Part shown: positions 7,264-63,462 of the stretch, in pieces
How positions within the stretch are numbered: the stretch's first letter is position 1
Layout: every line of letters begins with the position of its first letter
DNA from: Escherichia coli 042
Lineage (GTDB): Bacteria; Pseudomonadota; Gammaproteobacteria; Enterobacterales; Enterobacteriaceae
Strand: one strand, 5' to 3'
Length of the DNA stretch: 64,000 bases
Assembly (NCBI RefSeq): GCF_000027125.1
Contig: NC_017626.1
Translations under genes and position numbers: made by a program
Notes under the pieces: generated by a model
The model's input: the letters and a program-made list of their open reading frames with translations, nothing else
Told to the model about the DNA's origin: nothing
Database searches by the model: none

Positions 7264-7551
7264 ATGAAAATTACAGTGGTTTGCGGTAACGGCTTAGGCA
7301 CCAGCCTGATGATGGAAATGAGCATTAAAAGCATTTTGAAGGATTTGTCCGTCAGCGCTGATGTTGATCACGTCGACCTGGGCTCCGCGAAAGGGACGCC
7401 GAGTGATATCTATGTCGGCACCAAAGACATTGCCGAGCAGTTAGTCGCGCAGTCTGTCGCAGGCAAAATCGTCGCACTGGAAAATATGATTGATAAGAAA
7501 GCCATGAGAGAACGTTTATCCGTGGTATTAAACGAATTAGGCGCACTGTAA
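7264..7551 (+). CDS. PTS EIIB component, ascorbate family
   Basis: 95 aa; MKITVVCGNGLGTSLMM with active-site Cys typical of UlaB/SgaB-like EIIB. Confidence 0.8.
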   Translation: MKITVVCGNGLGTSLMMEMSIKSILKDLSVSADVDHVDLGSAKGTPSDIYVGTKDIAEQLVAQSVAGKIVALENMIDKKAMRERLSVVLNELGAL

Positions 7552-7563
7552 GCTGGGGGCGAT

Positions 7564-8820
7564 ATGGATTTCTTTCGTTTTTTGATGAGCGATGTACTTT
7601 CCGAACCCGCAGTGCTGGTCGGTTTAATCGCCCTGATTGGCCTGATTGCACAGAAAAAACCGGTAACCGAATGCATTAAAGGTACCGTCAAGACCATTAT
7701 GGGGTTTGTGATTTTAGGCGCAGGGGCGGGTTTAGTTGTGTCGTCACTGGGTGACTTCGCAAACATTTTCCAGCATGCCTTTGGTATTCAGGGTGTAGTG
7801 CCGAACAATGAAGCCATTGTTTCCGTAGCGCAGAAAAGCTTCGGGAAAGAAATGGCGATGATTATGTTCTTTGCGATGGTTATCAACATTATGATTGCCC
7901 GTTTCACACCGTGGAAATTTATCTTCCTGACCGGTCATCACACGTTGTTTATGTCGATGATGGTAGCGGTAATTCTGTCAACAGCAGGCATGACCGGCAT
8001 TACGCTTATAGCCGTTGGCTCTTTGGTTGTTGGCGTGGCAATGGTCTTTTTCCCGGCTATTGCGCATCCGTACATGAAGAAAGTGACCGGTTCTGATGAC
8101 GTTGCCATCGGCCACTTCTCAACATTATCTTATGTATTGGCTGGTTTCATCGGCAGCAAGTTTGGTAATAAAGAGCACTCGACTGAAGACATGAATGTGC
8201 CGAAAAGTCTGCTGTTCTTGCGCGACACGCCGGTTGCTATCTCTTTTACCATGAGCATAATTTTCCTGGTGACGTGCCTGTTTGCGGGTGCAGATGCGGT
8301 GAAAGAGCTTAGCGGTGGTAAAAACTGGTTCATGTTCTCTATCATGCAATCCATTACCTTCGCAGCTGGCGTGTACATCATTCTGCAGGGTGTGCGCATG
8401 GTGATTGCGGAGATTGTCCCGGCATTCAAAGGTATTTCAGACAAGCTGGTTCCGAATGCCAGACCTGCTCTCGATTGCCCGGTCGTCTTCCCTTACGCAC
8501 CTAACGCTGTACTGGTTGGTTTCCTGAGTAGCTTTGCTGCAGGTTTAATCGGTATGTTCACGTTGTATCTGCTGAACATGATCGTGATTATTCCTGGTGT
8601 GGTGCCGCACTTCTTCGTAGGTGCAGCTGCAGGGGTATTCGGTAATGCAACGGGTGGACGTCGTGGTGCGATTTTGGGTGCCTTCGCTCAAGGCTTGCTT
8701 ATTACCTTCCTGCCAGTATTCTTATTGCCGGTGCTGGGTGATATTGGTTTTGCTAACACCACCTTCAGTGATGCTGACTTTGGCGCACTGGGTATTTTGT
8801 TAGGGATTATCGTTCGCTAA
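7564..8820 (+). CDS. PTS EIIC permease, ascorbate family (UlaA/SgaT-like)
   Basis: 418 aa polytopic membrane protein immediately downstream of EIIA and EIIB. Confidence 0.8.
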   Translation: MDFFRFLMSDVLSEPAVLVGLIALIGLIAQKKPVTECIKGTVKTIMGFVILGAGAGLVVSSLGDFANIFQHAFGIQGVVPNNEAIVSVAQKSFGKEMAMIMFFAMVINIMIARFTPWKFIFLTGHHTLFMSMMVAVILSTAGMTGITLIAVGSLVVGVAMVFFPAIAHPYMKKVTGSDDVAIGHFSTLSYVLAGFIGSKFGNKEHSTEDMNVPKSLLFLRDTPVAISFTMSIIFLVTCLFAGADAVKELSGGKNWFMFSIMQSITFAAGVYIILQGVRMVIAEIVPAFKGISDKLVPNARPALDCPVVFPYAPNAVLVGFLSSFAAGLIGMFTLYLLNMIVIIPGVVPHFFVGAAAGVFGNATGGRRGAILGAFAQGLLITFLPVFLLPVLGDIGFANTTFSDADFGALGILLGIIVR

Positions 8821-8892: not shown

Positions 8893-9066
8893 TTTTCTTT
8901 CTTCCAGTCAGGACTGCATCCGATTAATCGTAAGCGCTCCGAGAAGTACGTAGCGTAAGGATTATTTTACAGCTGAGAAGTTTCAGTGCAGCAGTTCATG
9001 CACACGGTTCGACGGCTAGTCATTGATCTTCATAATTACCTCGCGTAAAAAACGGGGTAAGGCCGC

Positions 9067-9496
<430 letters not shown>

Positions 9497-9537
9497 TGAC
9501 CAGTTTTTGTTGACCACTACAAATAAATAAAAGAGTT

Positions 9538-9612
9538 GCAGTGCTTGCTCGGTAAGAAAACAATGGAAGTTGAGATCCTCAAAGAAGCTGTGGAGTACAC
9601 CACTCTACAGTA
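9538..9612 (+). pseudogene. IS2-like (IS3 family) orfA C-terminal remnant
   Basis: Translation [22 protein letters not shown] matches C-terminus of IS2 InsC ([24 protein letters not shown]) at 15084-15449. Confidence 0.5.
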
Positions 9613-9741
9613 GTTGCGCAAATTTGGAGTGGACGATAATGTGATCGTCTATAAGGGCAACGCTATCATAGTCTTGTCCTGGCGGGTAAAAAAGCGCGCT
9701 TACCTTAACGATAAGCGCGCCGCTGTTCAGGCCTTGAGTGG

Positions 9742-10755
9742 TTATTCAATTCCTGTGGTGACTGTAAAAGTGCGCGTTTGCTGCGGTGCAACCTGAATCA
9801 GCGTGCCATTACGTTGCGCGGCAAGATACCCCTCAGGCCGACAGGTTGCAGGTAATGCAAAGGCGGCTACCTGTTGCTCTCCGTTATAAAGGATCCAGCG
9901 TGTCACATAATTTAGTTCAGCACTGTAGAAACGAGTAACAAACGTAGTGCCATCGGGAGAGATCATGCGAAACTCTGGCTGATCTGTATAAGCGTCCAGT
10001 TTGTCTGCAAAGAAGACAATTTCTGGATCATAAAATTCCGGTTGACTCAGCGTCGACAGAGAGGCTTCTCCCTGCATAATCCGTTGATTAAACGCCAGCC
10101 ACTGAGCGGTGGGATTAACATGCGAAGGCACTGATTCACGCAATCTTAATATTTCGTCCGGGATATTCTGGCTGAATGTAGCATTTGGTATATATGCATA
10201 ATTCATGTGGCACATATATTGTAGTGGCATATCTACAGAAGCCAGATTGGTTACGGCCATCTTAATATCGAACAGTGTAGAGGATTTGTGAAGGACCACT
10301 GTTGGTTGAGCCAGATAATGATGACCGAAACCCATTACATACTCGTAACGCCCGTTAAGGCGTAACATATCTCCGTCTAATTCCAGCCATGCTTCATCCA
10401 TCGCGGCACAGGCCATTTCACCGTGTAGCAGATGAGTATCTTCCGCAGATGGGCAGCCATTAGCCAGCAAACCTGAATGAAAAGCAAAACAGCCATAGGT
10501 CTCTATCACCTCTGTCGCCGGTTTAGGCTGGCGAAACATATTGCACATGGTGAGGCCGTGTCCATCAAATTGCGCATCCCAAATCATCTGCCCCATCCAG
10601 GGAAGAATAATCAAATGTCCACGACTGTTTGCAATTTTAAGCCCCTCGACACCGCTGTCATAGCGAAAAGACGTGACAGTAAAATCACTATTTTCCAGCA
10701 AGATACGAGGTTTCTCGCCAAAAAGCGCCCGCCACAAATTAATACGCGTACTCAT
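9742..10755 (-). CDS. deoX: DeoX-like protein of the deoK operon (putative deoxyribose mutarotase-type)
   Basis: 337-aa ORF at distal end of kinase-permease operon; assignment by synteny with the deoQKPX operon described in Salmonella and pathogenic E. coli. Confidence 0.5.
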   Translation of the reverse strand: MSTRINLWRALFGEKPRILLENSDFTVTSFRYDSGVEGLKIANSRGHLIILPWMGQMIWDAQFDGHGLTMCNMFRQPKPATEVIETYGCFAFHSGLLANGCPSAEDTHLLHGEMACAAMDEAWLELDGDMLRLNGRYEYVMGFGHHYLAQPTVVLHKSSTLFDIKMAVTNLASVDMPLQYMCHMNYAYIPNATFSQNIPDEILRLRESVPSHVNPTAQWLAFNQRIMQGEASLSTLSQPEFYDPEIVFFADKLDAYTDQPEFRMISPDGTTFVTRFYSAELNYVTRWILYNGEQQVAAFALPATCRPEGYLAAQRNGTLIQVAPQQTRTFTVTTGIE

Positions 10756-10766
10756 AACGGTTCTCC

Positions 10767-12083
10767 TCAGGACGCTGTGACTTCAGCCAGTGCGGTACGT
10801 ACTTTGCTTTCACGCCAGAAGTAGACTCCGACATAGACAAAGCAGAGCATAGAAACCAGGAATGAAAGCTGTAGTGAGTGGAACATATCTGCAATATATC
10901 CCTGAATTGCCGGAACCACCGCGGCACCGACAATAGCCATAACAATGACTGCTCCTGCCATTTCTGTATGTTCGTTATCAACTGTATCCAGTGTTCCTGC
11001 ATAGATCGTCGCCCAGCAAGGGCCAAACAAAACACTTACCAGGACGGCGACATAGACCGCGCTGAAACTTGGAGCCAGTGCAACATATGCCAGGAACAGC
11101 GCCCCTATAACGGAATAGAGAATCAATACTTTTTCCGGATTAAAACGCGTCATAAGGATGTTGGCTATAAACTTGCCAATAAAGAAGCAGGCAAAGCTAT
11201 AGACCATGAAGTTTGAAGCATCACGTTCGTTGATATCGCCCAACTCCAGCGCCAGACGGATGGTAAATGACCATACTGCGACCTGCATACCCACATAAAG
11301 GAACTGCGCCACAATACCGCGACGAAAGCGCGGATTTCTAGCCAGATAGCGCAGCGTATCCATTGCTGACGGGCGTTTATAGTGACTTGTCTGTGCCACT
11401 TTACAGGTTGGGAAGCGGGTTAAAAGGAACAACACCATGACCACAACCAGAATCATAATCATATACTTATACGGTTCAAGGGTGTTCTCTAACATCAGCA
11501 CCTTAAAGTTGTGAATTTGCTCGGCGTTCATTCCGGACATCTGCTTCTCAAGGCTTTCCCCCTCGGAGAAAACCAGATATTTGCCCAATAAAATACCAGA
11601 CGCAGCACCAATCGGATAAAAGGTCTGGCTGATATTGAGCCGCAATGTGGCATAGGCTTTTGGACCGATCATTGAACTGTATGTGTTCGCTGCAGTTTCA
11701 AGGAAACTCAGGCCAATCGCAATCGCAAAAATAGCTGCAAGGAACATAGTGTAGGTTGCCATATGCGAGGCAGGGAAAAAAAGTGTACAACCACCAATAT
11801 ACAGCGTCAGGCCAATTAAAATTGCCACCTTATAACTGGTCTTTTTAATCACAAGGGATGCTGGTATTGCAATTAAAAAATAACCTCCATAAAATGCGCT
11901 CTGCACCAATGCTGAAGCAAAGTTACTTAGCGAAAATACACTTTTGAATTGAGTGATTAATATGTCATTTAATGCAGCTGCGCATCCCCATAGCGGGAAT
12001 AAACACGATAACAAAATAAACTGGAACAAGGGAGTCTTATTCAGATACCCATCAGGCATCTGAATGATGTTTTTATCGTTCAT
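10767..12083 (-). CDS. deoP: MFS sugar permease, FucP-like (deoxyribose permease)
   Basis: 438 aa, ~12 predicted TM segments, L-fucose:H+ symporter-type; between kinase and deoX. Confidence 0.75.
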   Translation of the reverse strand: MNDKNIIQMPDGYLNKTPLFQFILLSCLFPLWGCAAALNDILITQFKSVFSLSNFASALVQSAFYGGYFLIAIPASLVIKKTSYKVAILIGLTLYIGGCTLFFPASHMATYTMFLAAIFAIAIGLSFLETAANTYSSMIGPKAYATLRLNISQTFYPIGAASGILLGKYLVFSEGESLEKQMSGMNAEQIHNFKVLMLENTLEPYKYMIMILVVVMVLFLLTRFPTCKVAQTSHYKRPSAMDTLRYLARNPRFRRGIVAQFLYVGMQVAVWSFTIRLALELGDINERDASNFMVYSFACFFIGKFIANILMTRFNPEKVLILYSVIGALFLAYVALAPSFSAVYVAVLVSVLFGPCWATIYAGTLDTVDNEHTEMAGAVIVMAIVGAAVVPAIQGYIADMFHSLQLSFLVSMLCFVYVGVYFWRESKVRTALAEVTAS

Positions 12084-12110
12084 AGTGCTACCTTTAACTG
12101 TGCAGGATGA

Positions 12111-13031
12111 TTATTCGTTTAAGGTTAAAAATTCATTAAATTGTTCAATACTCGGATAAGATGATTGCGTACCTTTCCCTGTGACGCTGAAAGCGGCAAA
12201 GAGAGCGGCTTTTTTCAAAGCGGCTTCAACATCACCGCTTTGAACATAATAATGGGAAAAGCAACCAATAAATGCGTCACCAGCGCCACTAGTATCAACA
12301 GCATTTACTTTGAATGCAGGAACATGGACTTCCTGATCGCGGGTCATCCATAATGCGCCTTTTTCGCTCATGGTAACAATAATATTGTTCAGCCCTTTAT
12401 CAACTAACGAACGTGCGGCCAAACGAATATGATCATAAGTATCAACCGACATACCGGTTAATATTTCCAGTTCTGTTTCATTCGGGATAAAGAAATCACA
12501 TTTGCAGGCATAAGACATATCTAACTCACGCAATGCCGGAGCCGGATTTAATAACACTTCAATACCATTTTTCTTACCAAACTCAATCGCGTGGTAAACT
12601 GTTTCCAGTTGAACTTCCAGTTGTAAAACGATCAATTTGCATTTTTTCAGATCTTCTGCAGCTCGATCGATATCTTCCGGGGAAAGAAATTTATTCGCTC
12701 CCTTAATTATTAATATACTATTGCTCGAGTTGGCATTAACAAAGATCGGTGCAACACCACTGCTGGTACAGGGGACCTTCTCAACATAAGTGGTATTAAT
12801 TCCCCATGATTCAAGATTACGAATAGTATTATCCGCAAAAATATCATCACCTACTTTAGTCAGCATCAGGACTTTTGAATTCAATTTAGCCGCCGCCACC
12901 GCTTGATTAGCACCTTTCCCACCACATCCGATTTTGAAGGCAGGTGCTTCCAGAGTTTCTCCTTCTTTAGGCATCTGATTAGTGTAAGTAATGAGATCCA
13001 CCATATTGGAACCAATAACTGCAATGTCCAT
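12111..13031 (-). CDS. deoK: Deoxyribokinase (ribokinase/PfkB family)
   Basis: MDIAVIGSNMVDL...GGKGANQAVAAAKL...DTSGAGDAF ribokinase signatures. Start placed at ATG 13029-13031 with GAGGT SD upstream (supplied ORF begins 27 bp earlier). Confidence 0.8.
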   Translation of the reverse strand: MDIAVIGSNMVDLITYTNQMPKEGETLEAPAFKIGCGGKGANQAVAAAKLNSKVLMLTKVGDDIFADNTIRNLESWGINTTYVEKVPCTSSGVAPIFVNANSSNSILIIKGANKFLSPEDIDRAAEDLKKCKLIVLQLEVQLETVYHAIEFGKKNGIEVLLNPAPALRELDMSYACKCDFFIPNETELEILTGMSVDTYDHIRLAARSLVDKGLNNIIVTMSEKGALWMTRDQEVHVPAFKVNAVDTSGAGDAFIGCFSHYYVQSGDVEAALKKAALFAAFSVTGKGTQSSYPSIEQFNEFLTLNE

Positions 13032-13333
13032 TTCACTACCTCTTATAAACTTTCGCATAACAATGGTATTTAAATAACATTAGCATGTTACTTTTGCATC
13101 ATTTGTGACTGAGATCGCGATTAGCACATCAACCCGATGTTTATTTAATAGACTTCCAGTCTCATCACTCAGGCCAACACTATCTAATCATAAGCAACCT
13201 AACAAGATTAGTGCCCAAAACTCAGCAGCCTATACCCTTTTCATTTCAAAGGGGCGGTCGTATAGTATGGTAATGAAAACAATGTTTACTAACGCCAAAA
13301 TGTTATTTTTATAACATTCTTACGGAGAGAGAG

Positions 13334-14119
13334 TTGATGGAAACGAAGCAAAAAGAGCGTATCCGACGTTTGATGGAACTGCTTAAGAAAACCGACAGAA
13401 TCCATTTGAAAGACGCAGCGCGAATGCTGGAAGTTTCTGTAATGACTATTCGTCGCGATCTCCATCAGGAAGATGAACCTCTGCCACTGACCCTACTGGG
13501 TGGCTATATTGTAATGGTGAATAAACCCGCGCCATCCATGCCAGTAATCCATGACGTTCCAAAAAATCATCGTGATGACTTACCTATTGCAATTCTGGCT
13601 GCCGGAATGGTTAATGAAAATGATCTGATCTTCTTTGATAATGGCCAGGAGATACCACTCGTTATAAGCATGATCCCGGATGCAATCACCTTCACCGGCA
13701 TCTGTTACTCACATCGCGTCTTTGTTGCGTTGAATGAAAAGCCTAATGTAACAGCAATACTTTGTGGTGGTACGTATCGTGCCAGAAGTGATGCTTTTTA
13801 CGATGCCAGTAACTCTTCGCCATTAGACTCTCTCAATCCGCGAAAAATATTTATTTCCGCCAGCGGTGTGCATAATCACTTTGGCGTCAGCTGGTTTAAC
13901 CCTGAAGATCTTGCCACTAAGCGTAAAGCGATGAACCGTGGACTACGGAAAATTTTGCTCGCCCGCCACGCGTTGTTCGATGAAGTGGCCTCTGCCAGCC
14001 TCGCACCGATCTCTGCATTTGACGTTCTGATTAGCGATCGTCCGTTACCGGCAGATTATGTTACGCACTGCCAGAATGGTTCTGTAAAGATCATTACACC
14101 TGATTCAGAAGACGAATGA
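13334..14119 (+). CDS. deoQ: DeoR-family transcriptional regulator
   Basis: N-terminal HTH ERIRRLMELLKKTDRIHLKDAARMLEVSVMTIRRDL and DeoR-type C-terminal domain; divergent from deoK. Confidence 0.8.
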   Translation: MMETKQKERIRRLMELLKKTDRIHLKDAARMLEVSVMTIRRDLHQEDEPLPLTLLGGYIVMVNKPAPSMPVIHDVPKNHRDDLPIAILAAGMVNENDLIFFDNGQEIPLVISMIPDAITFTGICYSHRVFVALNEKPNVTAILCGGTYRARSDAFYDASNSSPLDSLNPRKIFISASGVHNHFGVSWFNPEDLATKRKAMNRGLRKILLARHALFDEVASASLAPISAFDVLISDRPLPADYVTHCQNGSVKIITPDSEDE

Positions 14120-15083
14120 CTTACTGAAAAAACACCACAATCTTGTTAAACATCGTCGGGTTGGACTGATTACGTTGCACTTTCACCACATATTCCAGCT
14201 TATCTATTTGGCTTATCACCTACTCCAGACGCTGGCCATCCTTGACCAGTAGCCAGATATGGCTTTTGTCGCAGTCCTGAATCGGCAGGCAGAGAATGTC
14301 TTCAACGTTAAGAGCGCGACGGGCAAAAGCCCACAAAGGTGAGTCATTACACCCGGATGGTAAACAGGCACTTCCTTGTTGTAGAAGCCGTTATATTGTC
14401 CATAATGTCTGGGTTTTTAATGCATACTGGGTAACAACCGGACGAATCTTCGAATATCACTGGCGCTGCCAGCCGGTTTGAATTCATCTCACAACCCTGC
14501 ATAGAGCGAATCTCCTGCCTGCACGTCACTCCACTCCATGGTATCAACTTCACACTCTTTATCTGCGGCTAGCTTCAGCCACCAGATAAGCATCGACTAT
14601 GAAAGATGAGCCATGACAACATAACGTTGGTAACGCTCTGACGCCTTAATGGAAGATGCCTGCCACCATAGGGAATGTAAACGACTGAAGTGTGGCCTTT
14701 AATGCCGTGAACGGCTCATGGTCTCCTGGCACGGTTGCCGCCCCAACCTGTAACAACATTCCACAGTACAATGTCTGTCAGAGTCAGAGCCTCCCATGCT
14801 TGTTGTAGTAACTCTACCAGTTACGAACATCCTTCCTCAAAATTGTTGTCATATCTCGCATGGAAGAAAAGATCCTGGCTAAGGAGCAACACACAACGTA
14901 TTGCGGAACTTGCATATTTTTCCTGTAACTAGTGTATTACCACATATGGTAATAGCTACCTGTGTGGTTTCGCTGGATAGCAAGGGGATTTATAGACTGG
15001 CCCCCTGAATCTCCAGACAACCAATATCACTTAAATAAGTGATAGTCTTAATACTAGTTTTTAGACTAGTCATTGGAGAGCAG

Positions 15084-15449
15084 ATGATTGATGTCTTAGG
15101 ACCGGAGAAACGCAGACGGCGTACTACACAGGAAAAGATCGCTATTGTTCAGCAGAGTTTTGAACCGGGAATGACGGTCTCCCTTGTTGCCCGGCAACAC
15201 GGTGTGGCAGCCAGCCAGTTATTTCTCTGGCGCAAGCAATACCAGGAGGGAAGTCTTACTGCTGTGGCCGCAGGAGAGCAGGTCGTTCCTGCCTCTGAAC
15301 TTGCTGCTGCCATGAAGCAGATTAAAGAACTCCAGCGCCTGCTCGGCAAAAAAACGATGGAAAATGAACTCCTTAAAGAAGCCGTTGAATACGGGCGTGC
15401 AAAAAAGTGGATAGCGCACGCGCCCTTATTGCCCGGGGATGGGGAGTAA
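15084..15449 (+). CDS. insC: IS2 transposase OrfA (InsC)
   Basis: [26 protein letters not shown]...; supplied ORF starts at an upstream GTG. Confidence 0.9.
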
Positions 15450-16310
15450 GCTTAGTCAGCCGTTGTCTCCGGGTGTCGCGTGCGCAGTTGCACGTAATTC
15501 TCAGACGAACCGATGACTGGAAAGATGGTCGCCGCAGCCGTCACTCAGATGATACGGATGTGCTTCTCCGTATACACCATGTTATCGGAGAGCTGCCCAC
15601 GTATGGTTATCGTCGGGTATGGGCGCTGCTTCGCAGACAGGCCGAACTTGATGGTATGCCTGCGATCAATGCCAAACGTGTTTACCGGATCATGCGACAG
15701 AATGCGCTGTTGCTTGAGCGAAAAACCGCTGTACCGCCATCGAAACGGGCACATACTGGCAAAGTGGCCGTGAAAGAAAGCAATCAACGATGGTGCTCTG
15801 ACGGGTTCGAGTTCCGCTGTGATAACGGAGAAAAACTGCGAGTCACGTTCGCGCTGGACTGCTGTGACCGTGAGGCACTGCACTGGGCAGTCACTACGGG
15901 CGGCTTCGACAGTGAAACAGTACAGGACGTCATGCTGGGAGCGGTGGAACGCCGCTTCGGCAACGAGCTTCCGGCGTCTCCAGTAGAGTGGCTGACGGAT
16001 AATGGTTCATGCTACCGGGCTAATGAAACACGGCAGTTTGCCCGGATGTTGGGGCTTGAACCGAAGAACACGGCGGTGCGGAGTCCGGAGAGTAACGGCA
16101 TAGCAGAGAGCTTCGTGAAAACGATAAAGCGTGACTACATCAGTATCATGCCTAAACCAGACGGGTTAACGGCAGCAAAGAACCTTGCAGAGGCGTTCGA
16201 GCATTATAACGAATGGCATCCGCATAGTGCACTGGGTTATCGCTCGCCACGGGAATATCTGCGGCAGCAGGCCAGTAATGGGTTAAGTGATAACAGGTGT
16301 CTGGAAATAT
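15407..16310 (+). CDS. insD: IS2 transposase OrfB (InsD), 3' end altered by nested IS insertion
   Basis: DDE transposase; native ...RCLEI stop replaced, supplied ORF reads through to 16381 inside the IS66-family element. Confidence 0.8.
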
Positions 16311-16395
16311 GTAAGCGTAAACTGACCGCCGTATGTAGCCATCAGACGAGAATTGGTAACTTAGACGCCCATCTGATATAGACGGACATCTAAGT

Positions 16396-16821
16396 ATGGA
16401 ATTACAGGACTGGCGAAAAGAACCTCGTAAAAACTATTCGAATGAATTCAAACTTCGTATGGTGGAACTGGCATCACAACCTGGAGCTTGTGTTGCACAG
16501 ATTGCACGTGAAAATGGCGTCAATGATAATGTTATTTTCAAATGGCTCAGGCTCTGGCAGAACGAAGGGCGTGTTTCGCGGCGTCTTCCGGTAACGACCT
16601 CTTCTGACACTGGCGTTGAATTATTACCTGTAGAAATAACGCCGGATGAGCAGAAAGAACCTGTGGCGGCCATTGCGCCGTCTTTATCCACTTCCACTCA
16701 GACCAGAGTCAGTGCCAGTTCCTGCAAGGTGGAATTCCGTCACGGTAACATGACGCTGGAAAATCCATCGCCAGAGCTGCTCACGGTGTTGATCCGTGAA
16801 CTGACCGGGAGGGGAAGATGA
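16396..16821 (+). CDS. tnpA: IS66-family TnpA (Orf1)
   Basis: YSNEFKLRMVELASQPGACVAQIARENGVNDNVIFKWL. Confidence 0.85.
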   Translation: MELQDWRKEPRKNYSNEFKLRMVELASQPGACVAQIARENGVNDNVIFKWLRLWQNEGRVSRRLPVTTSSDTGVELLPVEITPDEQKEPVAAIAPSLSTSTQTRVSASSCKVEFRHGNMTLENPSPELLTVLIRELTGRGR

Positions 16822-17168
16822 TCTCACTCCCATCAGGTACCCGTATCTGGCTCGTTGCCGGCGTTACCGATATGCGTAAATCCTTCAACGGACTGGGAGA
16901 ACAGGTACAACATGTGCTGAATGATAATCCCTTCTCCGGTCACCTGTTTATCTTCCGTGGCCGACGGGGTGACACCGTCAAAATTCTTTGGGCTGATGCT
17001 GATGGTCTGTGCCTGTTCACCAAACGCCTGGAGGAAGGCCAGTTTATCTGGCCTGCGGTACGTGACGGCAAGGTATCCATTACCCGCTCGCAACTGGCAA
17101 TGCTCCTCGATAAGCTGGACTGGCGTCAGCCAAAAACATCCAGCCGTAACTCACTGACAATGTTGTAA
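16818..17168 (+). CDS. tnpB: IS66-family TnpB (Orf2)
   Basis: MISLPSGTRIWLVAGVTDMRKSFNGL...; overlaps tnpA stop by 4 bp. Confidence 0.85.
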   Translation: MISLPSGTRIWLVAGVTDMRKSFNGLGEQVQHVLNDNPFSGHLFIFRGRRGDTVKILWADADGLCLFTKRLEEGQFIWPAVRDGKVSITRSQLAMLLDKLDWRQPKTSSRNSLTML

Positions 17169-17198
17169 AAAACTCCTGACCGCATTATAAAAACGGTC

Positions 17199-18812
17199 AT
17201 GAGTCAGAAATACCTCATTCGCATCGCAGAGCTGGAAAGGTTGCTCTCTGAGCAGGCTGAAGCCCTCCGTCAGAAAGACCAGCAACTGAGTCTGGTTGAA
17301 GAGACGGAAGCCTTCCTGCGCTCTGCACTGACACGTGCCGAAGAAAAGATCGAAGAAGATGAACGGGAAATAGAACATCTGCGGGCTCAGATAGAAAAAC
17401 TGCGCCGGATGCTGTTCGGTACCCGTTCTGAAAAACTGCGTCGTGAAGTTGAACTGGCTGAGGCTCTGCTGAAACAACGTGAACAGGACAGCGATCGTTA
17501 CAGTGGGCGGGAAGACGATCCTCAGGTTCCCCGCCAGTTGCGACAGTCGCGCCATCGTCGTCCGTTACCGGCACACCTTCCCCGTGAAATACACCGCCTG
17601 GAGCCAGAAGAAAGCTGTTGCCCGGAGTGTGGCGGTGAGCTGGATTATCTGGGGGAAGTCAGCGCTGAACAGCTGGAACTGGTGAGCAGTGCCCTGAAAG
17701 TGATCCGCACAGAACGGGTAAAAAAAGCCTGTACAAAATGTGACTGTATTGTTGAAGCACCGGCGCCGTCCCGCCCGATAGAGCGTGGTATCGCGGGCCC
17801 CGGATTACTTGCCCGCGTGTTAACGGGAAAATACTGCGAACATCTGCCACTGTATCGTCAGAGTGAAATCTTTGCCCGCCAGGGTGTCGAACTGAGCCGG
17901 GCCTTACTCTCCAACTGGGTTGACGCGTGCTGCCAGTTAATGACACCGGTGAATGATGCCCTGTACCGTTATGTAATGAACACCCGCAAGGTTCACACTG
18001 ATGACACACCGGTAAAGGTACTGGCACCGGGTCAGAAAAAGGCGAAAACAGGGCGTATCTGGACGTATGTCCGGGATGATCGCAATGTGGGTTCGTCATC
18101 TCCTCCAGCGGTCTGGTTCGCGTACTCGCCGAACCGGCAGGGGAAACACCCGGAGCAACACCTCCGCCCCTTCCGGGGTATCCTGCAGGCGGATGCGTTC
18201 ACAGGTTACGACAGGTTGTTCAGTGCAGAACGTGAAGGTGGTGCACTGACAGAAGTTGCGTGCTGGGCCCATGCCCGGCGAAAAATCCACGATGTATACA
18301 TCAGCAGCAAAAGTGCGACGGCAGAAGAAGCCCTGAAGCGAATCAGTGAACTGTACGCCATCGAGGATGAAATACGGGGATTACCGGAGTCAGAGCGTCT
18401 TGCCGTCAGGCAGCAGCGAAGCAAAGTGTTACTGACGTCGCTGCATGAATGGATGGTGGAGAAGAATGGTACGCTGTCGAAAAAATCCAGACTGGGCGAA
18501 GCGTTCAGCTATGTACTGAATCAGTGGGATGCCCTCTGTTATTACAGTGATGACGGTCTGGCGGAGGCGGATAATAATGCTGCGGAAAGAGCGCTTCGTG
18601 CAGTCTGTCTCGGAAAGAAAAACTTTATGTTCTTTGGCAGCGATCACGGCGGCGAGCGTGGAGCACTGTTGTACGGGCTGATCGGCACCTGCCGTCTGAA
18701 CGGTATCGATCCGGAAGCGTATCTGCGCCATATCCTGAGCGTACTGCCGGAATGGCCTTCCAACCGAGTTGATGAACTCCTGCCATGGAACGTAGTACTC
18801 ACCAATAAATAA
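17199..18812 (+). CDS. tnpC: IS66-family transposase TnpC (537 aa)
   Basis: N-terminal coiled coil, CxxC...CxxC zinc motif (CCPECGGEL...CTKCDC), DDE-type core. Confidence 0.85.
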   Translation: MSQKYLIRIAELERLLSEQAEALRQKDQQLSLVEETEAFLRSALTRAEEKIEEDEREIEHLRAQIEKLRRMLFGTRSEKLRREVELAEALLKQREQDSDRYSGREDDPQVPRQLRQSRHRRPLPAHLPREIHRLEPEESCCPECGGELDYLGEVSAEQLELVSSALKVIRTERVKKACTKCDCIVEAPAPSRPIERGIAGPGLLARVLTGKYCEHLPLYRQSEIFARQGVELSRALLSNWVDACCQLMTPVNDALYRYVMNTRKVHTDDTPVKVLAPGQKKAKTGRIWTYVRDDRNVGSSSPPAVWFAYSPNRQGKHPEQHLRPFRGILQADAFTGYDRLFSAEREGGALTEVACWAHARRKIHDVYISSKSATAEEALKRISELYAIEDEIRGLPESERLAVRQQRSKVLLTSLHEWMVEKNGTLSKKSRLGEAFSYVLNQWDALCYYSDDGLAEADNNAAERALRAVCLGKKNFMFFGSDHGGERGALLYGLIGTCRLNGIDPEAYLRHILSVLPEWPSNRVDELLPWNVVLTNK

Positions 18813-19039
18813 GCGTCAATACGGTGCTCCGTTGACGCTTACGGAAATATAGGGGCAAATCCAATTTATTCGCAAGTAAAATGCCTGATAAAATACACGA
18901 ATCTAGTAATCATCAATATTTACTCTGGTCGAATGACGCGTGAAGTGGACGGCCAACAGACGCAGTCAGTGATCTACAGCCTGTTGAATAAAACCCCGGA
19001 TGCTTCCCCCGATTCTGCAAGTAATACTTCGGTTATTTG

Positions 19040-19145
19040 CACTATTTTATCCCTGTTGAATTTGGTTAAGCCGGTGCAGACGTGCCGGGAAACGCACACC
19101 TGAACCGGCACAATAAAATACAATACAACCCCCTGTTACTGGAGA
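19040..19145. repeat. 106-bp repeat, copy 1 (copy 2 at 47474-47579, one mismatch)
   Basis: cactattttatccctgttgaatttggttaagccggtgcagacg...ccccctgttactggaga present at both positions. Confidence 0.8.
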
Positions 19146-62142: not shown

Positions 62143-63048
62143 CTATATTTCCAGACACCTGTTATCACTTAACCCATTACTGGCTTGCTGCCGTAGATAT
62201 TCCCGTGGCGAGCGATAACCCAGTGCACTATGCGGATGCCATTCGTTATAATGCTCGAACGCCTCTGCAAGGTTCTTTGCTGCCGTTAACCCGTCTGGTT
62301 TGGGCATGACACTGATGTAGTCACGCTTTATCGTTTTCACGAAGCTCTCTGCTATGCCGTTACTCTCCGGACTCCGCACCGCCGTGTTCTTCGGTTCAGG
62401 CCCCAACATCCGGGCAAACTGCCGTGTTTCATTAGCCCGGTAGCATGAACCATTATCCGTCAGCCACTCTACTGGAGACGCCGGAAGCTCGTTGCCGAAA
62501 CGGCGTTCCACCGCTCCCAGCATGACGTCCTGTACTGTTTCACTGTTGAAGCCGCCCGTAGTGACCGCCCAGTGCAGTGCCTCACGGTCACAGCAGTCCA
62601 GCGCGAACGTGACTCGCAGTTTTTCTCCGTTATCACAGCGGAACTCGAACCCGTCAGAGCACCATCGCTGATTACTTTCTTTCACAGCCACTCTGCCGGT
62701 ATGTGCCCGTTTCGATGGCGGTACAGCGGGTTTTCGCTCAAGCAACAGCGCATTCTGGCGCATGATCCGGTAAATACGTTTGGCATTGATCGCAGGCATA
62801 CCATCAAGTTCGGCCTGTCTACGAAGCAGCGCCCATACCCGACGATAACCATATGTGGGCAGCTCTCCGATAACATGGTGTATACGGAGAAGCACATCCG
62901 TATCATCTGAGTGACGGCTGCGGCGACCATCTTTCCAGTCATCGGTTCGTCTGAGAATGACGTGCAACTGCGCACGCGACACCCGGAGACAACGGCTGAC
63001 TAAGCTTACTCCCCATCCCCGGGCAATAAGGGCGCGTGCGCTATCCAC
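62143..63048 (-). CDS. insD: IS2 transposase OrfB (InsD, 301 aa)
   Basis: Full-length DDE transposase ending ...RCLEI. Confidence 0.9.
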
Positions 63049-63371
63049 TTTTTTGCACGCCCATATTCAACGGCTTCTTTAAGGAGTTCATTTTCCATCG
63101 TTTTTTTGCCGAGCAGGCGCTGGAGTTCTTTAATCTGCTTCATGGCGGCAGCAAGTTCAGAGGCAGGAACGACCTGTTCTCCTGCGGCCACAGCAGTAAG
63201 ACTTCCCTCCTGGTATTGCTTGCGCCAGAGAAATAACTGGCTGGCTGCCACACCGTGTTGCCGGGCAACAAGGGAGACTGTCATTCCCGGTTCAAAACTC
63301 TGCTGAACAATAGCGATCTTTTCCTGTGTAGTACGCCGTCTGCGTTTCTCCGGTCCTAAGACATCAATCAT
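63006..63371 (-). CDS. insC: IS2 transposase OrfA (InsC)
   Basis: [18 protein letters not shown]... Confidence 0.9.
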
Positions 63372-63462
63372 CTGCTCTCCAATGACTAGTCTAAAAACTA
63401 GTATTAAGACTATCACTTAAATAAGTGATATTGGTTGTTTGGAGATTCAGGGGGCCAGTCTA

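Follow-up and report, generated by a model that had tools for sequence, protein, structure and literature searches.

The non-coding stretch between deoQ and IS2 in Escherichia coli 042 comprises an ilvN stub, orphan DNA and the 3' portion of a degraded island gene

Extent and coding content of the stretch

We analysed 873 bases (positions 14120 to 14992) within a 64-kb window, i.e., the whole 64,000-nucleotide piece of Escherichia coli 042 DNA to which all positions refer unless another sequence is named. The stretch begins with the base following the deoQ stop codon (TGA, 14117-14119) and ends one base before the left end of IS2 (TAGACTGGCCCCC..., from 14993). The preceding deoQ (13334-14119, plus strand) is intact and encodes a DeoR-family regulator of 261 aa (RefSeq: 'DeoR family transcriptional regulator'). 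With 46.6% GC, the stretch is similar to the flanking deo genes (44-46%). At a coverage of at least 80%, it is found in 1362 of 5426 complete E. coli genomes, with 100% identity to E. coli CV839-06 and 99.9% to 55989. The sole RefSeq annotation in identical copies is a 227-nt pseudogene.

The initial annotation had described this interval as a non-coding gap with only short overlapping ORFs, which is accurate in both its borders and its content. That is, 13 ORFs of 31-68 aa lie entirely within the stretch, overlapping in several frames, and a 14th extends into IS2. We used Markov-1 shuffles of the same sequence as a chance baseline for the longest ORF. The observed 68 aa are below the shuffle expectation of 80 ± 22 aa and are reached by 68% of the shuffles, such that the ORFs are at chance level. 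Scanning the ORFs of the stretch as well as a stitched translation of the pseudogene described below against Pfam, NCBIfam and PHROG yielded only a weak trace of an ACT domain (PF22629) in one ORF.

It had also been suggested that an integration-site remnant could sit here, which the searches do not bear out. ARAGORN reports neither a tRNA nor a tmRNA in the whole 64-kb window, and no tRNA-like sequence that could mark a tRNA-associated attachment site was seen. Furthermore, no significant repeat links the unassigned central piece of the stretch to the left edge of the deo block, or either of them to the rest of the window. Rfam 15 has no match within 14120-14992; its only hit in the window is a chance match to mir-194 (E 0.23) outside the stretch.

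Two decayed genes and the IS2 insertion

The initial annotation had proposed a decayed gene, and two are in fact present. The first is the 3' end (241 nt) of ilvN, the gene for the small subunit of acetohydroxy-acid synthase (AHAS) I, which occupies 14121-14361 on the minus strand and covers codons 18-96 only, with 86% amino acid and about 90% nucleotide identity to K-12. Using K-12 IlvN as tblastn query, residues 29-96 align with 59/69 identical positions (86%, E 1e-39), and residues 18-28 follow in a second frame. The frame switch corresponds to a 1-nt deletion between residues 28 and 29 (14327-14328, minus strand). In addition, Gln63 is changed from CAG to an in-frame TAG stop (14220-14222, minus strand; CTA on the top strand), and codons 1-17, i.e., the 5' end, are missing. 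Both the stop and the deletion are common to the two island haplotypes that we compare below.

An ilvB partner adjoins ilvN in other species, but tblastn finds no ilvB similarity within 14000-15000, and the idea that the rest of the stretch continues into ilvB was rejected on this basis. Similarity to uhpA was likewise not found inside the stretch (tblastn). Thus, homology to the AHAS small subunit (PF22629) is clear, whereas an intact frame with a start and an upstream ilvB are lacking. In contrast to ilvN of the ilvBN operon, the remnant is 5'-truncated, frameshifted and interrupted by a stop, and has no ilvB, promoter or leader; it therefore represents a fragment of a pseudogene rather than a second gene for an AHAS subunit. 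Its existence is already known, since RefSeq marks, in identical copies, a pseudogene named 'acetolactate synthase small subunit' at the end next to deoQ (equivalent of 14121-14347).

The second decayed gene belongs to the island backbone and is split. Its 3' part fills 14646-14992 (minus strand), with several frameshifts and stops and a TAA stop codon at 14646-14648 that is reached by the C-terminal frames. Its 5' part lies beyond the insertion sequences at 18869-19042 (minus strand), with a GTG start (VQITEVLL) at 19042. Weak DNA matches led to WP_001167473.1 (182 aa; L005 3828-4376) as an intact homolog. Using this protein as tblastn query, we obtain E 3e-13 for the window and E 9e-31 for the IS-free haplotype L004, where the decayed gene is contiguous. 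Positions 7627-7852 of L004 and 6869-7154 of L002 (strain 55989) align to the window from 18864 onwards.

RefSeq names WP_001167473.1 a 'YagK/YfjJ domain-containing protein' and fragments of it 'UCP030791 family putative phage-derived protein'. The former name finds no support in Pfam, NCBIfam or PHROGs: neither the protein nor the stitched window translation matches PF11726 or any NCBIfam model at E<=0.1, and WP_001167473.1 has no PHROG match and no BLASTP similarity to the canonical YagK/YfjJ proteins of the same loci. The latter do touch PF11726 (E 5e-5 and 2e-3), with scores that fall short of the gathering threshold. Because both family models and BLASTP are negative, we name the island gene by its homolog and claim no family membership; the window copy differs from this homolog in being multiply frameshifted, interrupted by stops and split by IS2. 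In L004, RefSeq annotates two CDS of 23 and 24 aa (7460-7531 and 7729-7803), the first as 'hypothetical protein' and the second as 'UCP030791 family putative phage-derived protein'. Both correspond to in-frame pieces of the decayed gene and are thus likely spurious calls.

The split is caused by a nested insertion. The first 1318 bp of IS2 (IS3 family; 14993-16310, plus strand; RefSeq 'IS3 family transposase') are followed by a complete ISEc23 (IS66 family, 2532 bp; 16311-18842, plus strand) inserted into the right end of IS2, and the last 13 bp of IS2 (AGGGGCAAATCCA) follow at 18851-18863 (plus strand), matching the right end of an intact IS2. The IS2 target-site duplication ATTTA (5 bp) is located at 14988-14992 and 18864-18868, and the 8-bp duplication of ISEc23 (GGAAATAT) at 16303-16310 and 18843-18850. 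The empty site of IS2 (GGGGATTTATTCGCAAG) is found in L004 and in 55989. Given the empty sites and the target duplications, the nested insertion is proven. Both elements have canonical ends and duplications of the usual size, and nothing about them is unusual in the window: IS2 is identified by its terminal sequences, its 5-bp duplication and an identifiable empty site, and ISEc23 has the tnpA-tnpB-transposase organisation according to the RefSeq annotation of an identical copy. A second, intact IS2 (98% identical, inverted) is present at 62145-63462. Strain 55989 has no IS2 at this position and carries ISEc23 at another site in opposite orientation (L002 7154-9685). Since the arrangements differ, the insertions into this pseudogene region were independent in the two genomes.

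A captured block with ends in uhpA and ilvN

To place the ilvN remnant, we scanned species-representative genomes for DeoQ, which gave 42 loci. DeoQ of the window shows 74-86% protein identity to DeoQ of 41 other species. In about 30 of the 42 DeoQ species, which belong to the Enterobacteriaceae, uhpA is followed by deoX/P/K and deoQ and then by intact ilvN and ilvB on the opposite strand. This gene order includes Salmonella arizonae and diarizonae, eight Citrobacter, Pseudocitrobacter, Trabulsiella, Leclercia, Kosakonia and Phytobacter. The comparison with related genomes that the initial annotation had proposed thus places an intact ilvN directly beside deoQ. In these about 30 species the stop codons of deoQ and ilvN are 1 nt apart, and the same spacing is found in the window, where the stub lies tail-to-tail with deoQ, an arrangement also seen in Salmonella, in Citrobacter and in about 30 further species.

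The blastn alignments extend from the deo genes across the junction into ilvN without a break and end at 14361 in every species with deoQ next to ilvN. Towards the left, homology to the Salmonella and Citrobacter loci begins at 9608. Here, the first ~63 nt of uhpA and the spacer that separates uhpA from ilvN in K-12 are preserved (9608-9744, minus strand; 86%, 121/141, to K-12 L003 2165-2305); compared to K-12, this uhpA-ilvN spacer is complete. The ancestral gene order together with the alignment ends at 9608 and 14361 points to a 4.75-kb block cut from such a chromosome. The position 14361/14362 is the right-hand breakpoint of this captured block, placed to the base. The guess of an original island junction in this stretch has thereby found its counterpart, i.e., the edge of the chromosomal block that carries the deo operon on the island.

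The surroundings of the left edge consist of mobile-element debris (9065-9744), i.e., an IS66-family tnpA-like remnant, an IS3-family orfA fragment and the uhpA stub. The first is an 84-aa ORF (9067-9321) with 73% DNA similarity to ISEc23 and an end-like match at 9376-9408. The second (~9530-9600), which we recognised from the peptide in the sequence, abuts the uhpA stub on its left. To the left of the deo block, a sequence of 53 nt (9434-9486) recurs about 23 kb away at 32361-32413 with 87% identity. Within the block (10767-13058), the automatic RefSeq names in identical genomes are generic or misleading, with deoK given as rbsK/ribokinase and deoP as fucP/L-fucose:H+ symporter.

Relationship of the stub and of the deo genes

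When compared with intact ilvN genes, the stub is 90.4% identical to that of K-12, followed by Pseudocitrobacter (83.3%), Citrobacter braakii (82%) and Salmonella arizonae (77%). In the tree, the stub has a long branch and groups as the sister of K-12, which 299/300 bootstraps recover as its nearest neighbour. The deo genes of the window are 76-84% identical to those of all sampled genera. Such values are roughly the core-genome divergence between Escherichia and those genera. Together, these relationships suggest an Escherichia-like lineage as the donor of the deo block.

The same identities could also be taken to mean that the ilvN remnant was not delivered with the deo operon at all, i.e., that it is a local duplicate of the cell's own ilvN or was converted by the resident gene: it is closest to K-12 ilvN, while any species having deoQ beside ilvN reaches at most about 83%. 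We consider this very unlikely given the tail-to-tail deoQ/ilvN arrangement with its 1-nt gap, which matches about 30 species, the continuity of the alignments across the junction, and the matching uhpA remnant at the opposite edge of the block. The distribution of differences within the stub also speaks against it. Between the window-type and L004-type haplotypes there are 21 differing sites (8.7%), which are scattered and evenly split, with 11 sites being K-12-like in one haplotype and 9 in the other. Given this pattern there is no conversion tract, and gene conversion of the stub by resident ilvN was rejected. Judged by the sequence pattern, the stub would rather have decayed neutrally following a single inactivation.

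The two haplotypes differ unevenly over the module. Between the window and L004, divergence is 0-0.5% in deoX, deoP and deoK and increases to 4-9% from the deoK-deoQ spacer onwards (13059-14992), with deoQ itself differing by 3.8%. This jump suggests a recombination breakpoint between old alleles of the module's right half. In another variant of the island, that of NC101-type strains (L051, L053, L056), homology to the window stops at about 14805; two genes for zinc-ribbon proteins and an 'inovirus Gp2 family' gene come next. What lies to the right of the deo block therefore varies between island lineages. A second match of 14654-14805 in strain TUM13066 turned out to be the same locus type truncated by IS100.

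The orphan piece between the remnants

The 284 bases between the two gene remnants (14362-14645) are non-coding and could not be assigned. This orphan piece has no similarity to the rest of the window and no match in the phage collection, and its ORFs belong to no protein family. Its core (14435-14563) resembles a stretch without annotation on four conjugative E. coli plasmids, with 74-75% similarity at the DNA level. In the plasmid that we examined (IncK2/Z, L007 3001-3130), the counterpart is located between a gene with a TraM-recognition domain and a DEAD/DEAH helicase gene. Using the plasmid stretch as query returned no annotated relatives. Since both copies of the core have stops in every frame and mismatches without codon periodicity (11/15/9), a coding function of the core was rejected.

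A similarity of ~130 nt that is non-coding in both copies and that sits 83-93 nt downstream of a minus-strand gene in the window as well as in the one plasmid examined could speak for a functional non-coding element in the whole orphan piece or in its core, e.g., a small RNA, a site bound by a protein on the DNA or one related to transfer. A small RNA had been raised for this gap by the initial annotation as well, and we found no sign of one. Neither the stretch nor the IncK2/Z plasmid locus has an Rfam match; promoter-like and terminator-like sites in the orphan piece are absent (0, compared to 2.2 and 0.8 expected by chance); and its fold z-scores of -1.06 and -0.81 are unremarkable. Variable-site density, which with three haplotypes has little power, is not reduced in the orphan piece relative to the frameshifted pseudogene next to it. 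The validated small RNAs of PAI-AL862, AfaR and IntR, are assigned to afa8 and int, in a report that leaves deoQ, deoK and ilvN unmentioned (PMC3326304). We thus regard a functional element in the orphan piece as very improbable.

The longest ORF

The longest ORF (68 aa; 14347-14553, minus strand) overlaps the end of the ilvN remnant. Two further ORFs of 61 and 65 aa have internal stops in the ~5%-diverged haplotype L004, while the 68-aa ORF stays open there with a GTG start. The 14 nucleotide differences between the haplotypes alter 9/68 of its residues and are distributed as 3/5/6 over the codon positions, i.e., without an excess at third positions. In a search of 5.8 billion proteins, it matches no more than 14 small clusters, which vary in length (51-95 aa) and, where named, are E. 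coli hypothetical proteins. Two of the more diverged metagenome matches (P0005, P0008) were examined as a possible older state of the ORF and rejected, since both contigs turned out to be this E. coli locus again, altered by frame fusions or IS insertions.

That one of the short ORFs, most plausibly this longest one, is a real small protein gene is scarcely credible: although it remains open in L004 and is predicted by some gene callers as a hypothetical protein, its length is below chance expectation, it overlaps the ilvN remnant, its haplotype differences change the protein without favouring third positions, the two matching contigs examined lead back to the same locus, it has no Pfam, NCBIfam or PHROG match, and the plasmid counterpart carries a stop in its frame. 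An intact conserved small gene, whose presence would contradict the reading as a geneless gap, was thus not found in the stretch by the family scans or by the haplotype and protein searches.

Discussion

Very probably, 14120-14992 is non-functional junction debris composed of three pieces: the ilvN stub, the orphan DNA and the 3' part of the split island gene. Gene debris of this sort is ordinary at a junction of an E. coli genomic island.

The observed borders are consistent with the following order of events. A block uhpA'-deoX-deoP-deoK-deoQ-'ilvN (9608-14361) would have been cut from a donor that had the deoxyribose operon between uhpA and ilvN, and the last 241 nt of ilvN would have travelled along because the cut fell within this gene. 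The excised block may then have joined a mobile genomic island, where it came to lie next to island-backbone DNA, i.e., the 284 unassignable bases and the small decayed island gene. The ilvN remnant probably decayed neutrally, gaining a single frameshift and a single stop, and the island haplotypes now differ in it by about 9%. The insertion of IS2 into the island pseudogene, with its 5-bp duplication ATTTA, and subsequently of ISEc23 into IS2, with its 8-bp duplication, would be later steps.

The deoK operon is known from islands of pathogenic E. coli (PMC7545054, PMC5382810), and the deoK (deoQKPX) module of PAI AL862, 55989 and NCTC 86 ROD 40 is the known system that the window resembles. 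It is thought to be derived from Salmonella enterica (PMC5382810). In contrast to this view, the ilvN remnant that flanks the module in the window groups with Escherichia ilvN. That the remnant is nearest to Escherichia (90%) and not to Salmonella (77%) is the only mildly new point of our analysis. The accessible literature, which does not include the primary deoK paper, makes no mention of ilvN or uhpA remnants beside deoK. Rather than from Salmonella, the module may thus come from an Escherichia-like chromosome that had kept deoXPKQ at its ancestral site between uhpA and ilvN. The operon would then be ancestral to the lineage and cleanly deleted in situ, and would survive in E. coli only as the copy rescued by the island. 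We see the chances for and against this scenario as evenly balanced.

For annotation, the gap is free of hidden genes, tRNAs, attachment sites and small RNAs, and is appropriately labelled as two pseudogene fragments with a spacer. With regard to the history of the island, the uhpA' and 'ilvN stubs form a molecular fossil that delimits the mobilised 4.75-kb block. They hint at an Escherichia-like source for deoxyribose use, a fitness trait associated with pathogenic E. coli.
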